The notes under the pieces: model-generated | Seen by the model: the letters and a program-made list of their open reading frames with translations, nothing else | Database searches by the model: none | What the model was told of the DNA's origin: nothing | Assembly (NCBI RefSeq): GCF_001644705.1 | Contig: NZ_CP015137.1 | Location: forward strand, 1-32,000 | Reading direction: 5' to 3' | DNA length: 32,000 nt | From: Dickeya solani IPO 2222 | GTDB lineage: Bacteria > Pseudomonadota > Gammaproteobacteria > Enterobacterales > Enterobacteriaceae | Position numbers and translations under genes: made by a program | Shown: piece by piece, positions 1 through 16,081 of the stretch | Layout: every line of letters starts with the position of its first letter | Position numbering within the stretch: position 1 is the first letter of the stretch

Positions 1-144
1 CGCCAGCCGGCTGGCTGAAATGCAACGGTCAGGCGTTCGACAAAAACGCCTTCCCTAAACTGGCGCTGGCGTACCCCGGCGGCGTCCTGCCGGATCTGCG
101 TGGTGAGTTTATTCGTGGCTGGGATGATGGGCGCGGGGTGGATG
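1..144. repeat. Left arm of a long inverted repeat (partner 4566..4709); probably continues upstream of the window
   Basis: Direct comparison: 1-115 is identical to the reverse complement of 4595-4709. There are 3 mismatches out to about 144, after which the sequences diverge. Confidence 0.9.
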
Positions 145-386
145 CGGGGCGTGCTCTGAGTTCCGTGCAAACGGATGAACTCCGGTCTCACAAACACCGT
201 TTCATTAATGAATATGGCACACCGACAGAACGGATCATTGCATTTAGCGATGAGAATAATGAAAAGATTGAGGTCACGCTCTCATCGGGAGCACGTGCGC
301 ATACATACATTTTTATGGAGAACACAGGGGGAGTTGAAACCCGTCCGCGCAATATCGCCTTTAGCTACATCGTGAGGGCTGCCTGA
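1..386 (+). CDS. Phage tail fibre protein, 3' end (5' part lies upstream of the window): tail-collar domain plus variable tip, cassette 1, apparently in the expressed orientation
   Basis: Frame 3 is open from the window edge to the TGA at 384-386. The translation PAGWLKCNGQAFDKNAFPKLALAYPGGVLPDLRGEFIRGWDDGRGVD is a phage tail-collar signature. It is followed by a unique tip of about 65 aa and the terminal TRPRNIAFSYIVRAA shared with the other two cassettes. Confidence 0.85.
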   Translation, partial: PAGWLKCNGQAFDKNAFPKLALAYPGGVLPDLRGEFIRGWDDGRGVDAGRALSSVQTDELRSHKHRFINEYGTPTERIIAFSDENNEKIEVTLSSGARAHTYIFMENTGGVETRPRNIAFSYIVRAA

Positions 387-468
387 GGACTGGAGAACTT
401 ATCTGTTTTATCGATGCCCGGCGCCGGCAGCCTCTTGGATGAGTCCGGAATAAACCGGTAAACCACCG

Positions 469-495
469 CGCGGTGAGGGGACTCACCGCGTTTTT
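469..495 (+). terminator. Rho-independent terminator after tip cassette 1
   Basis: 9-bp stem cgcggtgag / ctcaccgcg with loop ggga, followed by TTTTT (491-495). Confidence 0.8.
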
Positions 496-571
496 ACGCT
501 GTGGCCGACAAGGTGCTATTCCACCGTACTCCCGTTATAGTAGACAGGTGGTTTGGATAAGCGCGAGTGAC

Positions 572-1141
572 ATGATGAATCCTGATGAAAAAACGCTGTT
601 CCTGGATGCTATGGACGATGTCAAACCGCTAAAGCCGTCCGCTACCGTCGTTCATCTTAAACCCGTTTCGGCGAAAACCGTCCTTCCCCACATTGCGGAA
701 ACAGCGCCGGATAACTTTCTTATCACCGGCTTTCTCGATCTGTTTTCATGCGAGGTCCCGCTGGAGTTCAGGCGAGAAGGTATCCAGCAAGGCGTTGTGG
801 ATAAACTGCGGCAGGGAAAGTATCCGCTGGATGGCAGCCTCAACCTGCTGCGTCAGCCGGTTGAGACCTGTCGGCAGAATCTGTTGGCGTTCATGTTGCA
901 GGCACAGCAGGATAACTTGCGTAATCTACTGATTATTCATGGCAAAGGTCGTCATGAAAAATCACACGCCAATGTCATACGCAATTACCTGTTTCGCTGG
1001 CTGCAGCAGTTTGACGCCGTGCAAGCCTTTTGTACTGCGCAACCGTTTCATGGCGGTACCGGCGCCTGTTATGTGTCGCTTAAAAAATCCGACCAGGCCC
1101 GTCAGGATAACCGCGAGAGACACGCTAAACGCAGCCGTTGA
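572..1141 (+). CDS. smrA: Smr-domain DNA endonuclease SmrA (YdaL family)
   Basis: From MMNPDEKTLFLDAMDDVKPLK the protein is collinear with E. coli SmrA, including LIIHGKGRHEKSHANVIRNY and the C-terminal ERHAKRSR. The ORF-track start at 473 overlaps the upstream terminator and is rejected. Confidence 0.85.
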   Translation: MMNPDEKTLFLDAMDDVKPLKPSATVVHLKPVSAKTVLPHIAETAPDNFLITGFLDLFSCEVPLEFRREGIQQGVVDKLRQGKYPLDGSLNLLRQPVETCRQNLLAFMLQAQQDNLRNLLIIHGKGRHEKSHANVIRNYLFRWLQQFDAVQAFCTAQPFHGGTGACYVSLKKSDQARQDNRERHAKRSR

Positions 1142-1162
1142 TCTTTTGTTCAAGCCAAAGAA

Positions 1163-1184
1163 AACGCCCGGATAACCGGGCGTT
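1163..1184 (-). terminator. Hairpin between convergent smrA and the MFS gene; functions best on the minus strand
   Basis: Stem aacgcccgg / ccgggcgtt with loop ataa. On the minus strand it is followed by TTTTCTTTGG; on the plus strand the tail is poor. Confidence 0.6.
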
Positions 1185-1205
1185 GGTGTATGGGCGTCGG
1201 CATAT

Positions 1206-2552
1206 TTAGTAACTGAGTCCTGCAACGGCGGGCCGGCTATAGCCGAATTGTCCTTTGGCAAGAATCATCAGCGACGTCAACAGTGCAGGAATAGCCAGAA
1301 TAGTAAACATGGTGGTCAGCCCCCATCCCATATTAACCACCTGCGCGCCGGCGAACGCGCTCATGATGGCGCCCATTCGGCCAACGCCATGCATCCAGCC
1401 TGAGCCGGTGGCGCGAGCTTCTGTCGGATAGTAACGGGCGGAAAGCGCATTCATGCCGGTGTTGGCGCCGTTGAGGCAAAATCCGCTGCTGAACGCGACT
1501 ACCGCCAGCATCACGAAGTAGGCGTGGGTGAGGCCAATCATCGCGGTAGCTACGCCGCCGGCGGCGTAAATCATGCCAAGCGCCAGATGCGGGTTAACGC
1601 GGTCCATCAGCCAGCCGGCAAACAGCGAACCGAACGTGCCGCCGGCCTGATACAGGGCGGTAATAATAGTGGCCTCGGTCACGCTCATGCCGGCTTCCTT
1701 GATGACGGTCGGCAGCCAACTGCCCAACAGATACACCATAAACAAACCGAAGAAATAGCCACCCCACAACATGACGCTGCCAAAACGGTAAGAGCGGGAC
1801 AGCACCAGTTGAACGGCAAATGCAGGCGTTTTTTCTGCCACGGGCATAGCGAACTGACTGTCGGCCTGACTGATGCCGGGAGCGATTTTATCCACGATGT
1901 GATGAATCTGATGCGAATCCGCCCGCTTGCTGACCAGGAACCGCACCGACTCCGGCAGCTTCATCAGCAGGAACGGCACCAGCAGCAGTGGCAAAATGCC
2001 GCCCATCAGCAACACGGAATGCCAGCCCCACTGCGGAATCATCCAGGAGGCGGCAAATCCGCCGCTGGCGGCGCCGAAGCTGAAGCCGCAGAAGACCACG
2101 GTAATGATGAAGGAGCGTTTTTTCTCCGGCGCAAACTCCGATACCAGCGTACCGACGTTCGGCATCGCCGCCCCCAGGCCTAAGCCGGTCAGAAAGCGGA
2201 AAATCACCATGTGTTGTGAGGTTTGGGAGAACGCCGTCAATAAGGTCCACAAGCCGAACAAAAATACGCTGGCGATAATGATCGTTTTACGGCCTCGCCA
2301 ATCCGCCAGCGGCCCGGAAATCATCGCCCCGACGGCCAGCCCGATCAGCGCTGCGCTGATAACCACGGCCAGTTCTGCGTTGCCGATTCCCCAGGCTGCT
2401 TTCAACGATGGCGCGATAAAGCCCATGATGGCGATGTCCATGCCATCAAGCGCAATAATACAAAAGCAAAGAAAAACAATCAGTTTCTGGTAAGCGCCAA
2501 GAGGACGCTGATTAATCAGCTGGCGTACGTCAATCGCGGTGGAACCTGTCAC
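1206..2552 (-). CDS. MFS transporter, aromatic acid:H+ symporter type (PcaK/MhpT-like)
   Basis: A 12-TM-like hydrophobic pattern with MFS motifs (GPLADWRGRK, FLTGLGLGAAMPN). Start set at the GTG at 2552, which lies 6 nt after GGAGA; the longer ORF-track start has no RBS. Confidence 0.8.
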   Translation of the reverse strand: MTGSTAIDVRQLINQRPLGAYQKLIVFLCFCIIALDGMDIAIMGFIAPSLKAAWGIGNAELAVVISAALIGLAVGAMISGPLADWRGRKTIIIASVFLFGLWTLLTAFSQTSQHMVIFRFLTGLGLGAAMPNVGTLVSEFAPEKKRSFIITVVFCGFSFGAASGGFAASWMIPQWGWHSVLLMGGILPLLLVPFLLMKLPESVRFLVSKRADSHQIHHIVDKIAPGISQADSQFAMPVAEKTPAFAVQLVLSRSYRFGSVMLWGGYFFGLFMVYLLGSWLPTVIKEAGMSVTEATIITALYQAGGTFGSLFAGWLMDRVNPHLALGMIYAAGGVATAMIGLTHAYFVMLAVVAFSSGFCLNGANTGMNALSARYYPTEARATGSGWMHGVGRMGAIMSAFAGAQVVNMGWGLTTMFTILAIPALLTSLMILAKGQFGYSRPAVAGLSY

Positions 2553-2660
2553 GCTGTTTCTCCAACAATACCGCAAAAATGTTCACAATGGCTTACACTG
2601 TAAACAATTATTTCCGATAGGGAAATATAATGGCGGGAAAAAATTTTAAGGGCCGGAGAA

Positions 2661-2693
2661 ATAAAAGCGGCGCACCGTAAATGGATGCGCCGC
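2661..2693 (-). terminator. Rho-independent terminator after the phytase-like gene
   Basis: On the minus strand: gcggcgca ... tgcgccgc stem (8 bp, 11-nt loop) followed by TTTTAT. Confidence 0.7.
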
Positions 2694-2715
2694 CGAATAA
2701 TCAATGCAGAATGGG

Positions 2716-4071
2716 CTAGTAGAGCGGCTGGGGAAGGTGGATGATCCACAACTGGCTGGCGGCGTCATCGTTTGACAGCGGTTCCAGTTCCAGACGGGTA
2801 TCGACCGCTTTTCCATCCAGCAGCAGCGCGCCATCAGCGCCTACCTGATATTTCCCGATCTTCTTTACACCCTTGACAGGGTTGACCAGTACGGACTGTA
2901 CGCCAAAATCGTTGTCGTTGGTGACCGCCAGCGTACGGGCATCGATTAGCGCTAACCCTTCTGCCTTCTCAGGCCTCCAGCCCAACTGGCGCAAATCGAC
3001 CAGTTGCTGCTTTTTCGCCAGCACGACACCGCGTTTCGCCAGCGTTTTAGCATCATTCCACTCTGCCGGCTGTTTCGCATCCAACGCGCTCAGATCGCTG
3101 GCCTGGCTCAGGTCAACACGGTAAATCAGGTTACGCATCACCTTGTTTTTATCCGCTCCTTGCTCAATCACCAGCACTTCATGGTCGTTGAGCGCCACCA
3201 TGTCGCCAATTTTGGCGTCACCGTTTTTTTGCCACTGATCCGCATCCAGCGGATAGCCGTACATGGCAGTTTTGCCCGTTGCCGGATCAAAGCTGACCAG
3301 GCGAGTCAATAACGCCTTGTTTTTGGTTTTCCCCTCGATATCCAGCGTGCTTTGCACCGCAGCCAGAATGCGGCCGTCAGGCATGCGGGTGATGCCTTCA
3401 AAGCCCCGGTTAGGCTGGCGCCATTTAAGAATATTGGGTAAACCACTGGCTACGCCTTGTTCGCCGCTTAGTGGCGTCGGGCCGACTTTCTTCAGGATTT
3501 TTCCTTGCGCATCCACCTGAATCAGGAACGGACCGTATTCATCCGATAGCCAAAATCCCCCCTGACCATCCGGCGTAATACCTTCGGTATCCAGCCCACG
3601 GCGGTCATCCGTTAATTTTTGCAATCCATCGTTGAGCGCCACTTCATTGGTGGTGCCGACTAGCGAACCGGGTAACGGCAAGCCACTGATAGGGCCGGCT
3701 TCATCATGCAATTTGCGCAGCGCCGTAGCTTGCGCGCTTTTAGCATTAACGGTAATGGTCATGATGGAGGGGGTAAAATCAGGTGCGGCAAAGATTTTCG
3801 CGTCTTTGCCCTGATATTCCGGCGCATCGGCATTCGGGCCGCGATCGGTAACGGTAACAAACGTCAGCTTGTCGCCATCCCGCCCGATAAATGACAATCC
3901 GGAACCGACCCCCATGGGAAAACCGTTGGGAAAACGCGTCTGCCACTTACCGCGGTAACTGACCCGATCATTATCAGGAAAGGTAATCTGGTACTGCTCG
4001 GTTTGAATCTCTGCCGCCTGAACCACCTGGGCCAGCAGGAGCATAGGGAGAAATGATAAACGAAGACGCAT
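2716..4071 (-). CDS. Secreted phytase-like protein ('esterase-like activity of phytase' family)
   Basis: Signal peptide MRLRLSFLPMLLLAQVVQA/AE. Beta-propeller-like repeats with DTEGI, SDEYGP and NRGFEGI motifs recalled from the phytase-like family. Family assignment is from memory, not from a search. Confidence 0.55.
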   Translation of the reverse strand: MRLRLSFLPMLLLAQVVQAAEIQTEQYQITFPDNDRVSYRGKWQTRFPNGFPMGVGSGLSFIGRDGDKLTFVTVTDRGPNADAPEYQGKDAKIFAAPDFTPSIMTITVNAKSAQATALRKLHDEAGPISGLPLPGSLVGTTNEVALNDGLQKLTDDRRGLDTEGITPDGQGGFWLSDEYGPFLIQVDAQGKILKKVGPTPLSGEQGVASGLPNILKWRQPNRGFEGITRMPDGRILAAVQSTLDIEGKTKNKALLTRLVSFDPATGKTAMYGYPLDADQWQKNGDAKIGDMVALNDHEVLVIEQGADKNKVMRNLIYRVDLSQASDLSALDAKQPAEWNDAKTLAKRGVVLAKKQQLVDLRQLGWRPEKAEGLALIDARTLAVTNDNDFGVQSVLVNPVKGVKKIGKYQVGADGALLLDGKAVDTRLELEPLSNDDAASQLWIIHLPQPLY

Positions 4072-4163
4072 GGTCGAACCCCGTAAAAGAAATCAGCGAC
4101 ATCACACTAAAACTGTAATACGACGCGTTTATGACAGTACAGTACGGCAACGATACATATTGT

Positions 4164-4190
4164 AAAAACGCGGTAAGTCCCTTCACCGCG
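4164..4190 (-). terminator. Rho-independent terminator after tip cassette 2
   Basis: On the minus strand: cgcggtgaag-gga-cttaccgcg (one bulge) followed by TTTTT. It is homologous to the terminator at 469-495. Confidence 0.7.
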
Positions 4191-4278
4191 CTGTAGCTTA
4201 CCGGTTAGATTCCGGATTTATCCGACTATGAGGCCGTCGGCGCCGTGGCGATATCGTAAGGCTCGGTTTCACCCGATA

Positions 4279-4809
4279 TCAGGCGGCCCTCACGATGTAG
4301 CTAAAGGCGATATTGCGGGGGCGGGTAGCACCATACCCAAACTGCCAACCATTTGAATCCAAATCTTGTGCACCCGACGCCTCCACATTTATAGAGGAGC
4401 GTAGCATGCCATAATCGCCTTTATTAACAACATCAAACCCCATGGATTTGTATGTATTGGCACTATCGTTGTTTGCATGTATCAACGCTCCCACATTTAC
4501 TGAAGCTAAGTTAGGATCTGAAATAGTCAGAGTTCCTTTTTGCCAACTTAGCAATTCACGGGCAACATCCACCCCACGCCCATCATCCCATCCGCGAATA
4601 AACTCACCACGCAGATCCGGCAGGACGCCGCCGGGGTACGCCAGCGCCAGTTTAGGGAAGGCGTTTTTGTCGAACGCCTGACCGTTGCATTTCAGCCAGC
4701 CGGCTGGCGGCGTCGCCTGCGGCCAGGGCAGCGGTATGCCCGCCAGGTCGGTGGTTTTCAGCACGTCGCTTAAACCCAGGTTTGCGAGAAAACCAGAGGA
4801 TAAATACAA
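4279..4809 (-). CDS. Alternative tail-fibre C-terminal cassette 2 (tail-collar domain plus different tip); promoterless and silent in this orientation
   Basis: Encodes ...GIPLPWPQATPPAGWLKCNGQAFDKNAFPKLALAYPGGVLPDLRGEFIRGWDDGRGVD, then a unique tip of about 80 aa, then TRPRNIAFSYIVRAA. An in-frame TGA lies immediately upstream, and there is only a TTG 'start' with no RBS. Confidence 0.8.
   Translation of the reverse strand: MYLSSGFLANLGLSDVLKTTDLAGIPLPWPQATPPAGWLKCNGQAFDKNAFPKLALAYPGGVLPDLRGEFIRGWDDGRGVDVARELLSWQKGTLTISDPNLASVNVGALIHANNDSANTYKSMGFDVVNKGDYGMLRSSINVEASGAQDLDSNGWQFGYGATRPRNIAFSYIVRAA
4566..4709. repeat. Right arm of the long inverted repeat (partner 1..144)
   Basis: The reverse complement of 4595-4709 is identical to 1-115. 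Confidence 0.9.
4765..4790. other. Candidate 26-bp crossover site for a Din-family (hix/gix/cix-like) invertase
   Basis: The minus strand reads TTCTCGCAAACC-TG-GGTTTAAGCGAC. This has the 12-2-12 architecture with the AAACC-NN-GGTTT core of hix/gix/cix sites. It lies at the 5' edge of cassette 2 and 44 bp upstream of the invertase ATG. Confidence 0.65.
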
Positions 4810-5572: not shown

Positions 5573-6151
5573 ATGGAAAAAAATAATTCCCCCTGTTCAC
5601 TTGACCTGATTCTGGGCAAGGAGAACCTGTATAAAAATAGTCCAATTAATATCGGCAGCATTTCGCTTGGATGCTGCAAGTGCCAGGATACCCCTGCGAC
5701 TACCCCCACCACAACCGATGGGTTGAAAGATTTGGTCGGGATTCCGCAACCCTGGCCGTTGGCAGAAGCACCGGAAGGCTGGCTGAAATGTAATGGCCAG
5801 ACATTTGATACCGCAAAATATCCGCAACTGGCAAAACTATATCCTGCCGGCACCTTGCCGGACCTGCGCGGCGAATTTATTCGTGGTTGGGATGATGGGC
5901 GTGGGGTAGATGCCAAACGAGAAATTGGTTCCGCTCAATTGGGAACACATATCACTGGTGATAACGGCTTATATCCTGCTGTACATGGTATAGGGAAAAT
6001 AGCAGAATGTTATGTAGATAGTCCCGATGCTACTCCTCGTTCATTATATTGGATTGCCGCACCGAATAATGAACTCCAAACAGGACCAACATTTTGGGGT
6101 GCCACTCGCCCACGCAATATCGCCTTCAGTTATATCGTCAAGGCAGGCTAA
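5573..6151 (+). CDS. Tail-collar domain tail-fibre tip protein, cassette 3; has its own ATG and a fixed orientation
   Basis: GIPQPWPLAEAPEGWLKCNGQTFDTAKYPQLAKLYPAGTLPDLRGEFIRGWDDGRGVD, then a unique tip, then TRPRNIAFSYIVKAG. It is AT-rich, a stop codon lies at 5549-5551 just upstream, and it abuts the chaperone gene. Confidence 0.75.
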   Translation: MEKNNSPCSLDLILGKENLYKNSPINIGSISLGCCKCQDTPATTPTTTDGLKDLVGIPQPWPLAEAPEGWLKCNGQTFDTAKYPQLAKLYPAGTLPDLRGEFIRGWDDGRGVDAKREIGSAQLGTHITGDNGLYPAVHGIGKIAECYVDSPDATPRSLYWIAAPNNELQTGPTFWGATRPRNIAFSYIVKAG

Positions 6152-6990: not shown

Positions 6991-8160
6991 ATGAGTGATT
7001 TTCATCACGGTACGCAGGTCGTCGAAATCAACGACGGTACCCGCGTCATTTCAACTGTATCAACCGCGATCGTCGGTATGGTCTGTACCGGATCGGACGC
7101 TGACGCCACCACTTTTCCACTGAATACACCGGTACTGATTACCGATGTGCTGACCGCCGCAGGCAAAGCCGGTAAAACCGGTACCCTGGCTGCCGCGTTG
7201 CAGGCCATCGGCGATCAGACCAAACCGGTGACGGTAGTCGTTCGCGTCGCCGAAGGCGCCAACGAGGCTGAAACGGTGTCCAACATCATCGGCGGCGCCG
7301 ATGCCAACGGCAAATACACCGGTATGAAAGCCCTGCTGGACGCCCAGGCCGTCACTGGCGTGAAGCCGCGTATCCTCGGCGTTCCGGGGCTGGATTCCCA
7401 GCCTGTCGCCACCGCGCTGGCCGCCATCTGTCAGTCGCTGCGCGCCTTCGGTTACGTCAGCGCCTATGGCTGTAAGACCCTGTCCGACGCCATCAAATAC
7501 CGCGGCAACTTCAGCCAGCGCGAACTGATGGTGATCTGGCCGGACTTTATCGCCTGGAACACCGCCACCAACGCCAGCGCCACCGCCTACGCCACCGCGC
7601 GTGCGCTGGGCCTGCGTGCCAAGATCGACCAGGAAACCGGCTGGCACAAGACCCTGTCCAACGTCGGCGTCAATGGCGTGACCGGTATCTCCGCCAGCGT
7701 GTACTGGGACCTGCAGACCATCGGCAGCGACGCCGACCTGCTGAACGAAGCCGGCGTGACTACGCTGGTGCGTAAGGACGGTTTCCGCTTCTGGGGTAAC
7801 CGCACCTGTTCCGACGATCCGCTCTTCCTGTTTGAAAACTACACCCGCACCGCGCAAGTGCTGGCCGACACCATGGCTGAAGCGCACATGTGGGCCGTCG
7901 ACAAACCGGTTACCGCCACCCTGATCCGCGACATCATCGAGGGTATCAAAGCCAAGTTCCGCGAGCTGAAATCCAACGGCTACATCATTGACGCCGACTG
8001 CTGGTTCGATGAAAGCGCCAACGATAAGGAAACGCTGAAGGCCGGCAAGCTGTACATCGACTACGAGTACACCCCGGTGCCGCCACTGGAAAACCTCACG
8101 CTGCGTCAGCGTATCACCGACAAGTATCTGGTGAACCTGGCCGCATCCGTTAACAGCTAA
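6991..8160 (+). CDS. FI: Contractile tail sheath protein (P2 gpFI)
   Basis: MSDFHHGTQVVEINDGTRVISTVSTAIVGMVCT... is nearly collinear with P2 FI through ...LTLRQRITDKYLVNL. The ORF-track start at 6901 is an upstream extension. Confidence 0.95.
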   Translation: MSDFHHGTQVVEINDGTRVISTVSTAIVGMVCTGSDADATTFPLNTPVLITDVLTAAGKAGKTGTLAAALQAIGDQTKPVTVVVRVAEGANEAETVSNIIGGADANGKYTGMKALLDAQAVTGVKPRILGVPGLDSQPVATALAAICQSLRAFGYVSAYGCKTLSDAIKYRGNFSQRELMVIWPDFIAWNTATNASATAYATARALGLRAKIDQETGWHKTLSNVGVNGVTGISASVYWDLQTIGSDADLLNEAGVTTLVRKDGFRFWGNRTCSDDPLFLFENYTRTAQVLADTMAEAHMWAVDKPVTATLIRDIIEGIKAKFRELKSNGYIIDADCWFDESANDKETLKAGKLYIDYEYTPVPPLENLTLRQRITDKYLVNLAASVNS

Positions 8161-8174
8161 GGAGCGACAGACTC

Positions 8175-8693
8175 ATGGCACTGCCACGTAAACTTAAATA
8201 TCTCAACCTGTTCAACGACGGTATGAGCTACATGGGCCAGGTGCATTCCGTCACCCTGCCGAAACTGACCCGCAAACTGGAAAACTACCGCGGCGGCGGC
8301 ATGCAAGGCTCCGCACCGGTGGATTTCGGGCTGGACAACGACGCGCTGGTGATGGAATGGAACATGGGCGGCCTGCCGGACAGCGCCTTCTGGAGCCAGT
8401 ACGCGCTGCCGGGCGCCGATGCGGTTCCGCTGCGTTTCGCCGGCTCTTACCAGCGTGACGATACCGGCGACATCACCGCCGTCGAAATCGTACTGCGCGG
8501 CCGCCACAAGTCGATTGACAGCGGCGAATCCAAGCAGGGTGAAGAAACCGACGTGCGCGTCTCCACCCAGTGCACTTACTACAAACTGATCATCGATGGC
8601 GTCGACATGATCGAAATCGACACCATCAACATGATCGAGAAAGTGAACGGCGTTGACCGTCTGGAACAACACCGCCGCAATATCGGTCTGTAA
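8175..8693 (+). CDS. FII: Tail tube protein (P2 gpFII)
   Basis: MALPRKLKYLNLF...TLPKLTRKLENYRGGGM...IDTINMIEKVNGVDRLEQHRRNIGL matches P2 FII. Confidence 0.95.
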   Translation: MALPRKLKYLNLFNDGMSYMGQVHSVTLPKLTRKLENYRGGGMQGSAPVDFGLDNDALVMEWNMGGLPDSAFWSQYALPGADAVPLRFAGSYQRDDTGDITAVEIVLRGRHKSIDSGESKQGEETDVRVSTQCTYYKLIIDGVDMIEIDTINMIEKVNGVDRLEQHRRNIGL

Positions 8694-8753: not shown

Positions 8754-9044
8754 ATGACGGTTGAAACAACTGCACAAAACGACGTCATCATCCTGAACGC
8801 CCCGATCAAACGCGGCGAAACCCAGATTGACGCCATCACGCTGCTAACGCCAACCGCAGGCACGCTGCGCGGCATCGGTCTGGCGGCACTGGCGAGCGCC
8901 GATGTGGAAGCGCTGATTAAATTGCTGCCGCGTATCACTTACCCTGCCCTGACCGAAGCGGACGTCATGGGGCTGGAACTGCCAGACCTGCTTGAATTCG
9001 CCGGCAAGGTGATCGGTTTTTTATCGCCGGGCTCGGTACGCTGA
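8754..9044 (+). CDS. E: Tail assembly chaperone gpE
   Basis: NAPIKRGETQIDAITLLTPTAGTLRGIGLAALA...LELPDLLEFAGKVIGFLSP resembles P2 gpE. A GGAG RBS precedes the start. Confidence 0.85.
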   Translation: MTVETTAQNDVIILNAPIKRGETQIDAITLLTPTAGTLRGIGLAALASADVEALIKLLPRITYPALTEADVMGLELPDLLEFAGKVIGFLSPGSVR

Positions 9045-9196
9045 CGCTGCCGCCGAGCCTCACGGTTGACGACCTGATGGCGGATATCGCCGTGGTGTTC
9101 CACTGGCCGCCATCCACACTTTTCCCCATGAGCCTGGCAGAGTTGATTAACTGGCGTGCCAAGGCGCTACAACGAAGTGGACAAGACTATGCCTAA
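8754..9196 (+). CDS. E': gpE+E' frameshift-extended tail chaperone (-1 shift at 9017-9023)
   Basis: The -1 frame after the slip reads FFIAGLGTLTLPPSLTVDDLMADIAVVFHWPPSTLFPMSLAELINWRAKALQRSGQDYA*. The FHWP...SLxELxxW pattern is typical of the P2 E' extension. Its stop overlaps the next gene's start. Confidence 0.75.
9017..9023 (+). other. Programmed -1 frameshift slippery heptamer T_TTT_TTA
   Basis: An X_XXY_YYZ heptamer in the gpE frame (ggT TTT TTA) lies 7 codons before the E stop. The -1 frame stays open to 9196. Confidence 0.75.
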
Positions 9197-10283
9197 GCAA
9201 TCAACCACCCCGAATGACGGGTCGACGACAACAGGCGCCAGTGGACGAAGCAAAAGCGCCGGGGATAGCAGCATCTTCTCGCCGCTGGGGGATAATGTTT
9301 ATCTGAATAAAATCAGCAGCGTACTACAGGATTTTTTAAACAAAGCCGGTCAAATCACGCACAGTGGCGCGTTCAACGCCACCGGCTCGCCGAAAAAAAA
9401 CGCGACGGGCGGAAAAAAAGGCGGCAGACATTCTGCCGCGGCGCAGCTGGGAACACTGGGGAATCTCGCCAGACGATTCGACGCGCTGACCGCTATCCTG
9501 ACACCGGCCTCTTCCGCCCTGAAAACCGCGCATGACCGTTCGCCGGCGGACAATGCGGCGCTCTCCCGTAACGGCCAGTCCTCCGACGCCGGCGCAGCGC
9601 CATCGCTCATCGCTCAGGCAAGCGACGGCGTCAACAGCATCTATTTGTCCGCGACGGCGGCCATGCAGGCGCAACAGCGCATCGCCGGGCTGGTTCCTTC
9701 AGCGCGATGGGCTTCCGGCATTACCGCGCCGTCGCTGCCGGGCAACGTGGCGTCATTACTGCAAGCGCAGCAGAGCATCAATCTGCCCGCGAATCTCCTG
9801 CCACAGGTTGGCGCTGGCGCGACGTCGCAAACCGGTGCCGAAGGGCTGGACACGCTCGCCGGAACCGCACAGGAATCGTTCGTCGGCGTGGAAGAAACCA
9901 GCCTGATGCTGTCCGCATTAAGCAATGCGGACCTGGATGACGGCGACGGCGGCAACGGTGCAACCGGAGGGATTGACACGCTGCAAGCCATTTCAAGCCC
10001 GGCCCTGCAACTGCTGAGTCAATCCGCCCTGGCCGTTCAAAGCAGCGCAGAAACCCCGTCAAACCCGTTGTCTGACATGATGAACGGTCATTACCGCGCC
10101 CTCTCCCCGGCATCACAGCAAAGTTATGTTGACCAGCGCGTGGTGAATAACATCACCATCAACGTGCCGGAGAACAGCAACCTCGACACGATTAAACAAT
10201 ACATTGAAGAGGCCCTGAGAAAATACACCCCGAATAGCAGCGCGTACTCCTATAACTCCATGACCTCTAATCTCATTTCATGA
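9189..10283 (+). CDS. Protein in the tape-measure (gpT) position; unusually short (364 aa) and low-complexity
   Basis: Assigned by position only, between E' and U. The ATG at 9189 overlaps the E' stop. The protein is rich in Ala, Ser, Gly and Gln, and I saw no recognisable P2 gpT N-terminal similarity. Confidence 0.5.
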   Translation: MPKQSTTPNDGSTTTGASGRSKSAGDSSIFSPLGDNVYLNKISSVLQDFLNKAGQITHSGAFNATGSPKKNATGGKKGGRHSAAAQLGTLGNLARRFDALTAILTPASSALKTAHDRSPADNAALSRNGQSSDAGAAPSLIAQASDGVNSIYLSATAAMQAQQRIAGLVPSARWASGITAPSLPGNVASLLQAQQSINLPANLLPQVGAGATSQTGAEGLDTLAGTAQESFVGVEETSLMLSALSNADLDDGDGGNGATGGIDTLQAISSPALQLLSQSALAVQSSAETPSNPLSDMMNGHYRALSPASQQSYVDQRVVNNITINVPENSNLDTIKQYIEEALRKYTPNSSAYSYNSMTSNLIS

Positions 10284-10294
10284 GGATACCTATT

Positions 10295-10789
10295 ATGATG
10301 CTTGCGCTTGGTTTATTTGTATTTCAATTGCAAACGCTGCCCTACAGTACGCTCAGTCGTAATGTCAATTACCGCTGGGCCAACAACGGCCGTATTGGTC
10401 TGCGCCCGGCACAGCAGTTTTTAGGACAGGGAAATGAATCCATCAGCCTTAATGGCGTGCTATGTCCTGAAGTCAACGGCAAGTTCAGTAAGCTCTCGCT
10501 GTCGGCGCTGGAACTTATGGCGGGAATGGGGCGCGCCTGGCCGCTGATCGAAGGCAGCGGCACCATTTACGGCATGTACATTATTGAAAGTTTGCAACAC
10601 ACCAACACCGAGTTCTTTTCCGACGGCAGCGCCAAACGCATTGAGTTCTCGGTGAACCTGACGCGCGTTGACGAATCGCTGATTGCGATGTTCGGCGACC
10701 TCAGCCAGCAGGCGTCCGATCTGTACAACCAGCAGATCGCGCCGGCAATCTCATCCGCCAGAACCGCCATCGGGGGAGTGTTCTCGTGA
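10295..10789 (+). CDS. U: Tail protein gpU
   Basis: MMLALGLFVFQLQTLPYSTLSRNVNYRWANNGRIG...RAWPLIEGSGTIYGMYII...LTRVDESL is collinear with P2 gpU. Confidence 0.9.
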   Translation: MMLALGLFVFQLQTLPYSTLSRNVNYRWANNGRIGLRPAQQFLGQGNESISLNGVLCPEVNGKFSKLSLSALELMAGMGRAWPLIEGSGTIYGMYIIESLQHTNTEFFSDGSAKRIEFSVNLTRVDESLIAMFGDLSQQASDLYNQQIAPAISSARTAIGGVFS

Positions 10790-11964
10790 TAGTGAATAAC
10801 CGCATCGGCATTGCCGATCAACTCGCGCCGGATTATCAAATAACGCTGTCGGAGGCGTCAGGCGACGCCAAAACCACCCGCAACCTCAGCCAACGGCTTA
10901 TTTCACTGTCGCTGCACGATGTGCTGGGCTTCGAATCCGACCAGTTATCGCTGGATATCGACGACAGCGACGGCAAGGTGCTGATGCCCAAACGCGGTGA
11001 GAAAATTAACATCAGGATCGGCTGGAAAGGCAAGGCGCTGGTCGACAAAGGCACCTTTATCGTCGACCAGGTCAGCCACAGCGGCGCGCCGGACAGAATC
11101 ACCCTCAGCGCACGCAGCGTGAACTTTCGCGGCGATTTAAACACGCCGCGTGATGGCTCATACGATGTCACCACCCTGGGCGATATCGCCCGGACGATTG
11201 CGGAACGCTACAGTCTGCTGGCATCGATCGAGAACTCACTGGCCAACACCGCGATTACGCATGAAAACCAGTCTAAAGAATCCGACTTGTCGTTTCTTTG
11301 CCGTCTGGCCAGACGATACAGCGGTACGGTGGCGATCAAAAACGACACGCTGCGGCTTTTCGTCGCCGGCACCGGCACCGCCGCGGACGGCAAAAATGTC
11401 TCGACCTACCTGATCGAACGCAGCGACGGCGATTCACACAGTTTTACCATTGCCGACCGCATCGCCAATACGTCCGTCACCGCCAACTGGCATGACAGCA
11501 GCGATGCGAAAACACACACCGTGAAGATCAGCCGCAAGCGTCAAAGCCAACCAGACACGGTAGCAACACACCCCAACGCCAAATCGTCCGCCTCGTCCTC
11601 CGTACCGTCGACGGACAACTATCTTGCCGGGGAAGAAGAAAGCGAGCAAACGCTACAAACCACCTATTCCAGCCAGGACGACGCAACCCAGGCGGCGTTG
11701 AGCAAATGGCGTGAAACCCAGCGCGGCACGGTGACGTTCTCACTCACGCTGGCAAAAGGCATGGAAAATCTGAAGCCCGGCGCGCTGGTCCGGCTTAACG
11801 GCTTCAAACAGGTGATGGATGAGCGCCAGTGGACCATCAAGCGGCTGACCCACACCATTGCGGGCAGTGGTTTTATCACCGCTATCGAACTGGAAGTATC
11901 GATGCTGGATGTCGAGTACGACACCCGTTACAGCGTTATCGACAGCGCAATCGCCACTTCATAA
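10786..11964 (+). CDS. D: Late control / tail protein gpD
   Basis: PDYQITL...RLISLSLHDVLGFESDQLSLDIDDSDG is a gpD-family N-terminus. The GTG start overlaps the U stop (GTGA). Confidence 0.88.
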   Translation: MIVNNRIGIADQLAPDYQITLSEASGDAKTTRNLSQRLISLSLHDVLGFESDQLSLDIDDSDGKVLMPKRGEKINIRIGWKGKALVDKGTFIVDQVSHSGAPDRITLSARSVNFRGDLNTPRDGSYDVTTLGDIARTIAERYSLLASIENSLANTAITHENQSKESDLSFLCRLARRYSGTVAIKNDTLRLFVAGTGTAADGKNVSTYLIERSDGDSHSFTIADRIANTSVTANWHDSSDAKTHTVKISRKRQSQPDTVATHPNAKSSASSSVPSTDNYLAGEEESEQTLQTTYSSQDDATQAALSKWRETQRGTVTFSLTLAKGMENLKPGALVRLNGFKQVMDERQWTIKRLTHTIAGSGFITAIELEVSMLDVEYDTRYSVIDSAIATS

Positions 11965-12060: not shown

Positions 12061-12252
12061 ATGATGCATTGTCCTCTGTGCCGTCATGCTGCCCATGCCC
12101 GTTCCAGCCGCTACCTGTCTGAAAACACCAAGGAGCGTTACCACCAGTGCACCAACGTGAACTGCGGTCATACCTTCGTCACCATGGAAGCCATTACCCG
12201 CTCCATCATGGTGCCGGGCAAAACCGAACCGGTTGACGGCGAACGCAAGTAA
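12061..12252 (+). CDS. ogr: Ogr/Delta-family zinc-finger late transcription activator
   Basis: MMHCPLCRHAAHARSSRYLSENTKERYHQCTNVNCGHTF matches P2 Ogr, including the CxxC...CxxxxC zinc motif. An AAGGTGA RBS precedes the start. Confidence 0.92.
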   Translation: MMHCPLCRHAAHARSSRYLSENTKERYHQCTNVNCGHTFVTMEAITRSIMVPGKTEPVDGERK

Positions 12253-12302
12253 TTCGCCATTCCTCTCTCCCTCCGTGTTTCCTTACTTTTCTGACCGTCT
12301 TT

Positions 12303-12327
12303 CCCCGCCGCCCGGCGGGGTTTTTTA
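12303..12327 (+). terminator. Rho-independent terminator after ogr (right end of the phage-derived block)
   Basis: ccccgcc(gccc)ggcgggg followed by TTTTTTATT. Confidence 0.85.
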
Positions 12328-12642
12328 TTCCCCGCGAGCAATACACGAAGCGTGTTTTTATTGCTCTCATACTCCCGTATCGGAAAAACGTATTATTGAC
12401 GCTGACCGCCGTCGGCTTTTAGTATCGACCTGCTTTTGCTGATTTTCAGTCACTTGCCGCGACGATACCTGCCTGACGAGTTGTCAACGCCGCAAGGGAT
12501 GAATCCTGCCGTGACGATGGTGCCCTTCCCCCCTTCACCATCAAAAATCAGACGCTGACACCGCTTTGATTAACACGGGTTCAGGAAAAGCGTAATGGGC
12601 AATGACCCCCTGTTTTCCTGTTCCTCAGCAGGGAGAACACCG

Positions 12643-13953
12643 ATGATGGAAACCATCCAGGCTTACCGCGCCAGTCTGTTGCACTTTGTCGCCGACCCGC
12701 TGCATGACCCGCAGGCCACTCGCTTTATCGAAGACGGCCTGTTGCGGGTGCGCGATGGGCGTATTCAGGATGCCGTGCCGTATGACAGCCTCACTGAGGC
12801 CGAACGCCAGTCCATGACGGTGATCGACTATCGCGGCCGGCTGCTGATGCCGGGGTTTATCGACACCCATATCCATTTTCCGCAGACGGAAATGATCGCC
12901 AGTTACGGCGAGCAGTTGCTGTCCTGGCTCAATACTTACACCTTTCCCACCGAGCGTAAGTTCGCCGACGAGGATTACGCCCGGGAGCGGGCCGCGTTTT
13001 TCATTCAGGAACTGCTGCGGCACGGCACCACCAGCGCACTGGTGTTCGCCACCGTGCACCCGCAGTCGGTTGACGCGCTGTTCAGCGCCGCCGAAGCCAA
13101 AAACATGTGCCTCATCGCCGGCAAAGTGATGATGGACCGCCATGCGCCGGACTATCTGTGCGACACCGCGCAGCAAAGCTATGACGAGAGTAAAGCGCTG
13201 ATTGAAAAATGGCACCGGCGCGGGCGGTTGCGCTACGCGGTCACGCCGCGTTTTGCGCCCACCTCCACCCCGGCGCAGCTGGCGCTGGCGGGGCGACTGT
13301 TGCGGGAATACCCGGATGTGTATCTGCATACCCATCTGAGTGAAAACCCGGACGAAATCGCCTGGGTCAAATCGCTGTTTCCCGAACATCAACATTACCT
13401 TGATGTTTACCACCACCACGGTCTGACCGGACGCCGTTCGGTGTTTGCCCATGCCATCCATCTGCAGCCTGATGAAGTCCGCACGCTGGCGCAAAGCCAG
13501 TCCGCCGTGGCGTTTTGCCCCTGCTCCAATCTGTTTCTGGGCAGCGGCCTGTTTCGGCTGCATCCGCTAAAGGCCGCGGGGATTCGCATCGGAATCGGCA
13601 CCGACGTCGGCGCCGGCACCAGCCTGTCGCTGCTGCAAACCCTCAGCGACGGCTACAAAGTGCAGCAGTTGCAAGGAGAAAAACTCTCGGCACGCGAAGG
13701 GTTGTATCAGGCCACGCTGGGCAGCGCCGCCGCACTGTCGCTGGATGACCGGCTGGGTAACTTTCTGCCGGGCAAAGAAGCCGATTTCGTGGTGCTGGAC
13801 TGGGCCGCCACCCCACTGCAACAGTTGCGCCAGCAACAATCCACCTCGCTGGACGATCGGCTGTTCGCTCTGATGATGCAAGGTGACGACCGAAACATCA
13901 GCGCCACTTATGTGCATGGCGAATGCGTCTATACTCGTCATACGTCAAGTTGA
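12643..13953 (+). CDS. guaD: Guanine deaminase
   Basis: Collinear with E. coli GuaD (PGFIDTHIHFPQTEMIASYGEQLLSWLN, HTHLSENPDEIAWV, GTDVGAGTS). Start chosen at the ATG 8 nt after AGGGAG. Confidence 0.9.
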   Translation: MMETIQAYRASLLHFVADPLHDPQATRFIEDGLLRVRDGRIQDAVPYDSLTEAERQSMTVIDYRGRLLMPGFIDTHIHFPQTEMIASYGEQLLSWLNTYTFPTERKFADEDYARERAAFFIQELLRHGTTSALVFATVHPQSVDALFSAAEAKNMCLIAGKVMMDRHAPDYLCDTAQQSYDESKALIEKWHRRGRLRYAVTPRFAPTSTPAQLALAGRLLREYPDVYLHTHLSENPDEIAWVKSLFPEHQHYLDVYHHHGLTGRRSVFAHAIHLQPDEVRTLAQSQSAVAFCPCSNLFLGSGLFRLHPLKAAGIRIGIGTDVGAGTSLSLLQTLSDGYKVQQLQGEKLSAREGLYQATLGSAAALSLDDRLGNFLPGKEADFVVLDWAATPLQQLRQQQSTSLDDRLFALMMQGDDRNISATYVHGECVYTRHTSS

Positions 13954-14269
13954 CGATGCGGTGGCTTTATTTTTCTCGTCTATCGCCGCGAACAGCCGAC
14001 GATGATTCCGCCACAGCCCCTACGCCGCTGCGGCGGAATGGTACTCAGATCAGGCATGGCGGAGATAAAACGCACCGGCGTTTTCATCAGAAAGTGATCC
14101 ATTGCACATTTCACCCAAAAAAATCGCGCCGTGCTGTGCCGCTTACCGATAACTGTTCTTGAATAATATCGGACAAGCACTCAGGCCAACGGCGGGATGG
14201 CGACATCAGCTGAGCTCTGCCCCTTGCGGAGCTTGCAGCAATCATCACCAGGCACCATAAGGTTTCGTC

Positions 14270-16081
14270 ATGACTTCCCCATGCCATCGTTGTAGCGAAG
14301 AACAGCAAGACATCCTCGCGCGCATGCTGAATATCTTTGACACGCAGCCCGCCGAAGAGCTCCCTCGTCTGACGCGGATCACCCGCACCTTTTTTCAGGT
14401 AAAGAGCGTGGTGATTTCACTGGTGAACAATGAACGACAATGGTTTTTGTCTAAAGCCAACTTTCCCCTTCAGGAACCGTCCATCGAGTTTTCCTTCTGC
14501 GTGCATACGGTGAGCGCCAACGCGCCGCTGATCATCCCCGATACCCTGCTGGACGAGCGCTTCGCAACAAACCCGATGGTCACCGGCGATGATCCGATTC
14601 GTTTTCACGCCGGTTACCCGCTGCGTTCTTCGCTCGGCACGCCGCTCGGCGCGTTGTGCCTGTATCACGATCAGCCGCGCGCCTTCAGCGATGAAGACAT
14701 GCAGCAACTCAGCGACCTGGCATTTATCGTACAAACCGTGCTGCATAAAGTAGAGATGCAGGCGCGCGAAGCGATCGCCCGGGAAAAGCTGTATCAGTCG
14801 GATTACATCAGTCAGCAGATTTTTTCCCGCGCCGCCATCGGCCTGGCTCTGATAGCCCCAAACAAACGGCCGCTAAAATTCAATCACGCCTTCTGCGACA
14901 TGCTCGGCTACGACGAGGAAACGCTACTGACGCTACCGGTGGACAAAGTGGTGCACCCGGAAGACCTGCCCAGACTGATCAGCGATCACGACCTGCTGAT
15001 GGACAGTAATTTGCTGGAGAGCACCCTGCAGCGGCGCTATATCCGCGCCGACGGCAGCGAATTGTGGGCGCAGGTTTCCATTTCGGTGCTCTACAATCCG
15101 GATGGCGGTAAATTCGGCCTGTTGCTGGCGCTGACCGACCTCAGCGACCAAAAAGCGTCCGAGCAGGCATTGCGCGGCCTGAGTCAGGAACTGGAGCACC
15201 GGGTGGAACAACGCACCGCCGAGCTGCGCCAGAGCCACCAGTTTATTCAGGACATCACCGATCATATTCCGGCGATGATCTCCTGCATCAATCCGAACAA
15301 CGTACTGGTTTTCGCCAACCGCCACCTGCGGAAATTAATAGGCCACGAACATACCCTGTACCAGCGCGATATCCACGAGATTCTTCGCCCACAGGAGCTG
15401 GCGCTGTTCCTGCCGCGTCTGGAGGAGTCACGCCAGAAACGGCACTCCGCGTCGTTTGAACACGTGCTGGATATGCCCGACGGTCAGCTCATCACCTTTC
15501 ATACCGAACTGGTGCCTGCCGACTCGCCGGAGCTGGGCACCTATATTCTTTCTACCGATATCACCCACCTTACGGTATTGCGCGACCAGTTGACGTTCGA
15601 AGCCAATCACGATCATCTGACCGGTCTGCCTAACCGGCGTGCGGTCATCAGCTACCTGAACCGGCTGGCGGGGAAAAAACGGCGCGGCGCGCTGGCGCTG
15701 CTGTTTTTTGATATCAACAACTTCAAACACTATAACGACCGGTTCGGGCACGACTTTGGCGATCGGGTCATCAAAACCTTCGCCCGCTTGCTACGCCAGA
15801 ATACCCGCTCCTACGATTTCATCGGCCGTTTGTCGGGCGACGAATTCCTGATGGTAATTAATGAGCAGCGCAATCTGGCCAGTGAAATCCGCGCCATTAC
15901 CCAAAAACTGAAAGCGAAGATCGAAAAACCGATCACCATTCGCCAGCAGACCATCACGCTATCCGCCAGCGTGGGACGCGCGATTTTGCCTCAGGGCGCG
16001 CCGCTTAACGCCAACGAGCTGATCCGCCAGGCGGACACCGCCATGTACCAGGCCAAACGTCGCGCTATCTCCCCATCCTGA
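14270..16081 (+). CDS. GAF-PAS-PAS-GGDEF diguanylate cyclase (active-site variant SGDEF, I-site RSYD present)
   Basis: N-terminal GAF-like block (ISLVNNERQWFLSK...GALCLYHDQPRAF), then PAS-like segments. The C-terminal GGDEF domain contains HDHLTGLPNRR ... RSYDFIGRLSGDEF. Confidence 0.85.
   Translation: MTSPCHRCSEEQQDILARMLNIFDTQPAEELPRLTRITRTFFQVKSVVISLVNNERQWFLSKANFPLQEPSIEFSFCVHTVSANAPLIIPDTLLDERFATNPMVTGDDPIRFHAGYPLRSSLGTPLGALCLYHDQPRAFSDEDMQQLSDLAFIVQTVLHKVEMQAREAIAREKLYQSDYISQQIFSRAAIGLALIAPNKRPLKFNHAFCDMLGYDEETLLTLPVDKVVHPEDLPRLISDHDLLMDSNLLESTLQRRYIRADGSELWAQVSISVLYNPDGGKFGLLLALTDLSDQKASEQALRGLSQELEHRVEQRTAELRQSHQFIQDITDHIPAMISCINPNNVLVFANRHLRKLIGHEHTLYQRDIHEILRPQELALFLPRLEESRQKRHSASFEHVLDMPDGQLITFHTELVPADSPELGTYILSTDITHLTVLRDQLTFEANHDHLTGLPNRRAVISYLNRLAGKKRRGALALLFFDINNFKHYNDRFGHDFGDRVIKTFARLLRQNTRSYDFIGRLSGDEFLMVINEQRNLASEIRAITQKLKAKIEKPITIRQQTITLSASVGRAILPQGAPLNANELIRQADTAMYQAKRRAISPS

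Follow-up and report, generated by a model that had tools for sequence, protein, structure and literature searches.

The window analysed here is a stretch of 32,000 nucleotides from Dickeya solani IPO 2222 (contig NZ_CP015137.1, positions 1 to 32,000). It contains the right half of a headless contractile tail cluster of the P2 type, the D. solani version of the locus for the tailocin dickeyocin P2D1; gene content and order are those of P2D1, and head genes are absent. Between the tape-measure chaperone pair E/E′ and the gene for gpU, the place of the tape-measure gene T in phage P2, lies an open reading frame (ORF) of 364 amino acids (aa). The P2D1 cluster is already known, and within it this short gene was overlooked and reported as absent. 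What is new is the recognition that the short gene is a truncated, selected derivative of a tape-measure gene, and that its length and the published particle length are mismatched about three-fold.

The left half of the cluster was read in a close relative (locus L024), where it consists of B, A, X, R, an ORF of 254 aa of unknown function, V, W, J, I and H, and the segment with H and the cargo genes was read in another D. solani locus (L004). The cluster is not a remnant; the window merely begins within the tail-fibre gene H. No other tape-measure candidate is present in the cluster, either among the genes of the left half or in the middle, which is a fibre, invertase and cargo segment. The features from the sheath gene to the right end are listed below, with the ratio of nonsynonymous to synonymous substitution rates (dN/dS) where it helps to characterize them.

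6991..8160, + strand: tail sheath (FI); PF04984, PF17482, PF22671; 98.8% mean identity among Dickeya, dN/dS 0.02
8175..8693, + strand: tail tube (FII); PF04985; dN/dS 0.01
8754..9044, + strand: gpE tape-measure chaperone; PF10109; 60% identical to P2 gpE
8754..9196, + strand: E+E′ -1 frameshift product, 147 aa; slippery heptamer at 9017-9023; PF06528 matches the E′ ORF in homologous loci
9189..10283, + strand: truncated tape-measure derivative, 364 aa, ortholog of DDA3937_RS12125
9375..10022, + strand: aa 63-278 of this protein, probable N-terminal/TP901-core remnant; matches residues 165-403 of a 771-aa Prodigiosinella protein
10083..10271, + strand: aa 299-361, conserved C-terminal tape-measure module; nearly invariant in Dickeya, local dN/dS 0.07
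10295..10789, + strand: gpU; PF06995; 54% identical to P2 gpU
10786..11964, + strand: gpD baseplate hub; PF05954; 45% identical to P2 gpD
12061..12252, + strand: Ogr late-gene activator, right end of the cluster; PF04606
12595-13953: guanine deaminase, downstream of ogr

The first-pass annotation had placed the 364-aa ORF between an intact E/E′ pair and gpU, with P2-like junctions, and both points are borne out by the ORF coordinates, the PF10109 match of gpE, the slippery site and the gpU match. The ORF starts with ATG and ends with TGA. The slippery heptamer T TTT TTA occupies 9017-9023 and the -1 frame of E′ stops with TAA at 9194-9196, so that the ORF, counted from its ATG, and the end of E′ share 8 nt. 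The overlap in P2 is the same (T from 19850, E+E′ to 19857). The ATG of gpU follows at 10295, after an 11-nt spacer. The 57-aa E′ extension and the position of the heptamer are kept in five Dickeya species, in Prodigiosinella and in P2, and the slippery site and E′ sequence are kept in every species examined. To our knowledge, a tape measure is the sole client of the E/E′ chaperone pair. Lengthening of the ORF by read-through or fusion is ruled out by the clean stops and by the different frames of E′ and T.

The protein is also less than half the expected length, as first noted. P2 gpT has 815 aa (NP_046782.1), of which 364 aa is 45%, and the ORF between E and U spans 543-1165 aa (median 931) in 40 P2-like IMG/VR loci, which makes the D. 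solani gene a real outlier. The bias towards Ala, Ser, Gly and Gln is confirmed (A 14%, S 14%, G 9%, Q 6%), and the residues A, S, G, Q, T, N and P together make up 62% of the protein compared with 49% of P2 gpT, while charged residues account for 13%. The description as low-complexity was overstated: the mean entropy over 20 residues is 3.15 bits compared with 3.27 bits for P2 gpT, and the ORF has no tandem repeats beyond one trivial case of 16 nt. The tape measures of P2, Prodigiosinella and Musicola contain a hydrophobic stretch of 70-85 residues, with maximal 19-residue Kyte-Doolittle means of 2.3-2.6. No such stretch is found in the 364-aa protein, whose maximum is 1.03 and in which no 19-residue window has a mean of 1.6. 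Thus, the protein resembles P2 gpT in operon position and in the 8-nt overlap with the E′ stop, but differs from it in length, in family matches and in the missing hydrophobic segment, and the cluster around it is a headless bacteriocin whereas P2 is a virion.

The 364-aa protein is identical to a D. solani protein found on many D. solani contigs. The best-studied counterpart of the locus is the P2D1 cluster of D. dadantii 3937 (NC_014500 2,734,508-2,757,061), which has the same gene order at the same chromosomal locus, with sheath and tube proteins ~99-100% identical to those of the window. In this genome, E is RS12120 (2,753,566-2,753,856) and U is RS12130 (2,755,104 onward), and the gap between them is filled, with the same spacing, by DDA3937_RS12125 (WP_033111905.1), a protein of 363 aa that is 87-88% identical to the one in the window. 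The window differs in the species and in the particular orientation of its invertible fibre segment. The published description of P2D1 states that the cluster has no tape measure and says nothing about RS12125 (Borowicz et al. 2023, PMC10719855), and the P2D1 papers in Sci Rep 2025 and ISME Commun 2026 do not mention the short gene.

Homology and distribution of the short gene

A HMMER profile built from 11 Dickeya orthologs and searched against 1.84 billion representative proteins retrieved only Dickeya sequences and one 771-aa protein (cluster representative P0036), which was matched through its C-terminus (E 2.4e-8 for 1.84e9 proteins). This protein (WP_021015751.1) comes from Prodigiosinella confusarubida / Serratia sp. 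ATCC 39006, and copies that differ little from it occur in Brenneria; it is a tape measure of family PF10145 whose core shares 42% identity with P2 gpT. Its locus is orthologous, with the order FI-FII-E-T-U-D-ogr-guaD-GGDEF. BLASTP of the D. solani protein against it gives two collinear blocks, linking the short protein to bona fide tape measures by sequence: aa 63-278 align to 165-403 (30% identity over 244 columns, E 2e-10) and aa 299-361 to 705-768 (41% identity, E 2e-11). When the query was shuffled, none of 500 shuffles reached the real score of either block (z = 11.6 and 15.6, respectively). The register is the same in six of the seven Dickeya orthologs tested; the seventh, from D. dadantii 3937 (P0011), matches the Prodigiosinella and Brenneria proteins at the C-terminus only. 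The C-terminal block is also found, at 96%, when profile is aligned to profile with hhalign. It matches D. lacustris 762-821 and Musicola 672-736 as well, and there is weak collinear similarity to P2 gpT (232-286 to 349-401 and 302-361 to 752-814). For the N-terminal 62 residues, similarity to full-length tape measures is not significant, since 44 of 500 shuffles score at least as high.

Alignment to P2 gpT and related tape measures, which had been proposed as a means of mapping any deletion, does place one. In a gapped global alignment with the 771-aa protein, the main loss falls at residues ~404-704, with ~100 more residues missing from the N-terminal third, and the lost part includes the hydrophobic stretch of 70-85 residues and the second half of the TP901 core. 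Between D. solani and Prodigiosinella, identity is far higher for the flanking proteins (FI 93%, FII 85%, E 73%, U 63%, D 52%) than for T (25%). Further searches found little else: tblastn against 50,697 phage records gave no match, the sole PHROG match is phrog_11151 of unknown function, neither the Dickeya profile nor the Prodigiosinella tape measure had a meaningful match among PDB sequences, and a profile search of genome contigs with the family alignment returned one locus only, in D. undicola. When the Prodigiosinella tape measure itself was the query for homologs, only remote proteins of the TP901 type came up, none of them intermediate in form. Taken together, the alignments support the view that the 364-aa gene is a tape-measure gene with a large in-frame internal loss rather than an annotation error.

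Proteins of 353-377 aa occupy this position in D. solani, D. dadantii, D. dianthicola, D. poaceiphila, D. oryzae, D. zeae, D. undicola, D. chrysanthemi and strain NCPPB 3274, and the short form is thus fixed in at least nine Dickeya species (core Dickeya). The same slot between E/E′ and U holds proteins 2.0-2.3 times longer (737-825 aa) in D. lacustris (825 aa), Musicola paradisiaca (737 aa), Prodigiosinella (771 aa) and Brenneria uluponensis (767 aa). These long relatives share the C-terminal module of ~65 residues and part of the core with the window protein; those of Prodigiosinella and D. lacustris match PF10145 and those of Prodigiosinella and Musicola keep the hydrophobic segment, in both respects unlike the short form. 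The Prodigiosinella, Musicola and D. lacustris loci lie in the same chromosomal neighbourhood as the window; Brenneria is known from the protein cluster, and its locus was left out of this comparison. Since D. lacustris and Musicola carry long forms at the syntenic locus, the truncation can be placed within Dickeya, later than the branching of the D. lacustris lineage, and has been retained thereafter.

The order of ogr, guanine deaminase and a GAF-PAS-GGDEF gene is common to Dickeya, D. lacustris and Prodigiosinella, while in Musicola the GGDEF gene directly follows ogr and no deaminase is called. These shared flanking genes indicate a single chromosomal site and long vertical inheritance of the tailocin cluster. 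In the window (12061-16081) and in three further loci (L012, L022, L023), ogr ends the cluster and no integrase is present.

Across five Dickeya species the short gene has a dN/dS of 0.17, which makes it the fastest evolving gene of the operon (FI 0.02, FII 0.01, E 0.08, U 0.03, D 0.10), and its conserved blocks at alignment positions 141-180, 221-260 and 321-360 have values of 0.04-0.09. Because its length is fixed, purifying selection acts on it and the E/E′ chaperone pair is intact, the gene is, as far as sequence comparison can tell, maintained and functional, and old rather than a recent defect. A pseudogene is ruled out by the dN/dS of 0.17 and the conserved length.

Some members of the family have peculiarities of their own. 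The D. lacustris 825-aa gene (L022 7511-9988) has 34% GC compared with 55% in the adjacent sheath and tube genes, and its product is rich in Lys, Asn and Glu and has no hydrophobic segment; the middle of the gene looks as if it had been replaced by foreign DNA or had drifted to an extreme degree. In the reduced genome of D. poaceiphila (L010 1-6200), OutS- and MerR-type chromosomal genes lie upstream of the invertase in place of H and the cargo segment and the baseplate half is not adjacent, while FI through ogr, including the short T, is intact. Two D. solani assemblies, CP024711.1 (L005 308-832) and CP051459.1 (L006 1-4900), contain duplicated pieces of the locus: one has an N-terminal fragment of guanine deaminase fused just upstream of the fibre crossover, and the other has a second partial tfa-FI-FII-E copy, with T/U fragmented. 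Either real tandem duplication or misassembly would account for them.

Tail length and the role of the short protein

The tape measure as a ruler is textbook knowledge for long-tailed phages and is assumed for tailocins. It serves, in addition, for recognising tape-measure genes and for deriving an expected tail length from sequence. At 0.15 nm per residue, 364 aa correspond to 55 nm as a helix, and a fully extended chain would reach ~127 nm. The P2D1 particles of D. dadantii 3937 are contractile and measure 166 ± 7 nm (PMC10719855), and deletion of the sheath or tube gene of the cluster, which sit immediately upstream of the short gene, abolishes both particles and killing (PMC12904277). A further report gives an average of 153 ± 20 nm for Dickeya and Musicola tailocins, with similar morphology in all strains, and lists D. 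solani A623-S20-A17 among the producers of active tailocins (PMC11974492). Mitomycin-inducible, contractile particles that kill bacteria are thus published for D. dadantii 3937 and for this D. solani strain. Proportionality at ~0.15 nm per residue does not appear to hold for these particles. Because both the helical and the extended length fall below the published particle length, a helical ruler made of one chain is excluded, barring a second tape measure from elsewhere, which the available evidence speaks against. A search of the literature found no precedent for a tape measure that is too short, only the usual ruler arguments.

On balance, the ORF seems to be the D. solani ortholog of DDA3937_RS12125 and a working, truncated descendant of a P2-type gpT, which docks to the hub by its C-terminus with the help of E/E′ and whose length no longer sets that of the tail. 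With similarly modest confidence, tail length in the P2D1 tailocins of core Dickeya can be regarded as uncoupled from tape-measure length, a remnant of 353-377 aa supporting tails of ~150-166 nm either independently of a ruler or by a non-helical or serial one. Of the first half, the protein would have kept a diverged remnant (aa ~63-278), together with the C-terminal module of ~65 residues (aa 299-361). The loss would amount to ~300 internal residues, made up of the TP901 core's second half and the entire hydrophobic segment, plus ~100 residues of the N-terminal third. Since the C-terminal module is nearly invariant and the chaperones are intact, the short protein may dock with E/E′ by its C-terminus into the gpD/gpV hub, where it may nucleate polymerisation of the tube or plug it. 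The hydrophobic part of tape measures is generally tied to the formation of a membrane channel for the passage of DNA, a function that may become dispensable once the element is a headless bacteriocin. The short protein would no longer span the tube as an α-helical ruler, given the particles of 150-166 nm that are made by orthologous clusters with an equally short protein. The narrow length distribution could come about without any ruler, through short proteins that are extended or lie in series, or through a protein supplied in trans.

Several observations weigh against this reading. The published tail lengths come from electron microscopy of other strains with orthologous clusters and not of the window strain. 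No Pfam or NCBIfam model, including PF10145 and TIGR01760, matches the 364-aa protein at E <= 10, in contrast to P2 gpT, which reaches 155 bits with PF10145 and 357 bits with TIGR01760. The hhalign comparison of the two family profiles recovers the C-terminal block only, and homology of the middle region rests on pairwise BLASTP and its shuffles. AlphaFold2, run on the 11-sequence alignment, predicts ~55% helix, split by long unstructured linkers, with a mean predicted local distance difference test (pLDDT) score of 33, which is uninformative. Although tape measures are low-copy proteins, the six P2D1 proteins identified from excised gel bands do not include the product of RS12125 (PMC10719855).

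The alternative that survives best is that the short protein is still a ruler but a non-canonical one, working as an extended or disordered chain or as several copies placed end to end in the lumen of the tube. This is possible, if rather unlikely. The composition (62% Ala, Ser, Gly, Gln, Asn, Thr and Pro, 13% charged residues) and the broken helices of the very low-confidence AlphaFold2 model would suit a disordered chain, length is tightly held at 353-377 aa within core Dickeya, and the narrow spread of ± 7 nm argues for some kind of ruler. Three helical lengths in series would give ~164 nm, close to the published 166 ± 7 nm, but this numerical match may be a coincidence, and even a fully extended chain, at ~127 nm, remains shorter than the reported particle. 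Moreover, Musicola, with 737 aa, is reported to make morphologically similar particles (PMC11974492). We know of no precedent for a serial or fully extended tape measure.

It is improbable that the tail is measured by a full-length tape measure from another part of the genome, such as some other prophage, with the short protein kept for a different role. Sources can be imagined: D. dadantii 3937 has other phage-derived regions, with head genes at 915-932 kb and lysis genes at 3.10 Mb, and some D. undicola and D. zeae genomes have a second gpU, 55-56% identical to the tailocin copy (P0133, P0137, P0145), which implies that further prophages of the P2 kind are present, with possible full-length tape measures. 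Against this, BLASTp with P2 gpT found no match anywhere in the 3937 genome (PMC10719855, supplementary file 3), and a foreign protein would have to fit the chaperones E/E′ and the gpD/gpU hub of the cluster. In addition, purifying selection maintains the short gene together with its own chaperone pair in all core Dickeya genomes that were examined, and the tailocin is made across many species with differing prophage contents.

The classical ruler of 0.15 nm per residue was established for lambda gpH and T4 gp29. From this rule and a length below half that of P2 gpT, the first-pass annotation had predicted ~55-nm tails and unusually short or defective particles. This is very unlikely, and for D. 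dadantii 3937 it is contradicted, since a homologous cluster with a protein of the same size (363 aa) makes active particles of normal length, 166 ± 7 nm. A D. solani strain also makes active tailocins of similar morphology, the neighbouring structural genes are all intact and strongly constrained, and conservation of the short gene under purifying selection does not fit a defective cluster. The other possibility once considered beside a deletion, replacement by an unrelated sequence, might account for the missing Pfam, NCBIfam and phage-record matches and the sole PHROG of unknown function, but is hardly credible and contradicted by two collinear, significant blocks to tape measures of the orthologous locus in a register consistent in six of seven orthologs, which favour the in-frame deletion.

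In this experimentally characterised tailocin family, the tape measure is cut to 45% of the P2 length while the published particles are normal or longer. If the uncoupling of tail length from a truncated tape measure is correct, contractile tails could keep to a set length although no helical ruler spans them in full, or could do so with a ruler of an unconventional kind. The hydrophobic part for DNA transit would be dispensable once a tail becomes a bacteriocin, and engineering of tailocin length or cargo might need other rules. The uncoupling is directly testable because sister lineages keep versions of 737-825 aa at the same locus. These natural variants form a ready-made test system, with 93% identity of the sheath and 85% of the tube between Prodigiosinella and D. 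solani, the sole pair measured.

The tail-fibre switching segment and the left half

The window begins inside H, and the left part of it is an invertible element of ~4.4 kb beside an invertase gene. The features are as follows.

1..386, + strand: 3′ end of tail-fibre gene H, one of two alternative Collar-domain C-termini
1..4709, no strand assigned: invertible segment; inverted repeats 1-153 / 4557-4709
575-1141, + strand: Smr, cargo within the invertible segment
1206-2576, - strand: MFS transporter, cargo within the invertible segment
2716-4071, - strand: phytase-like secreted protein, cargo within the invertible segment
4279..4809, - strand: alternative tail-fibre C-terminus (Collar), silent in this orientation; PF07484; equals the C-terminus of the 401-aa H in L004
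4834..5430, + strand: Hin/Gin-type serine DNA invertase; PF00239 and PF02796 on the identical gene in L004/L005
5573..6151, + strand: Collar-domain fibre protein, 192 aa, positional ortholog of the P2D1 'side tail fibre' DDA3937_RS12100; PF07484; synteny with L009
6154..6765, + strand: tail-fibre assembly protein; PF02413

The translation of the H frame ends with ...RPRNIAFSYIVRAA, followed by TGA at 384-386, and is identical to the inverted 161-aa Collar ORF of the D. solani locus L004, where the invertible segment lies in the opposite orientation (compare L004 38-5621). The two 153-nt repeat arms are 95% complementary. The Smr, MFS and phytase-like cargo genes look cellular, and the same cargo is found in the Musicola and D. 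oryzae clusters.

In the left half of the cluster, a homolog of the tail completion protein gpS was not found between gpR and gpV (L024 5413-7100), where the 254-aa ORF of unknown function (phrog_18172) is located instead; S is also given as absent in the BLAST table of the P2D1 paper (PMC10719855). The same paper detected RS12100 in P2D1 particles by mass spectrometry. The 192-aa Collar ORF of the window (5573..6151), its positional ortholog, is a third, free-standing one with its own assembly gene and without the N-terminal shaft of H, and weaker inverted repeats (4566-4638 / 5840-5912, 82%) tie it to the switching region.

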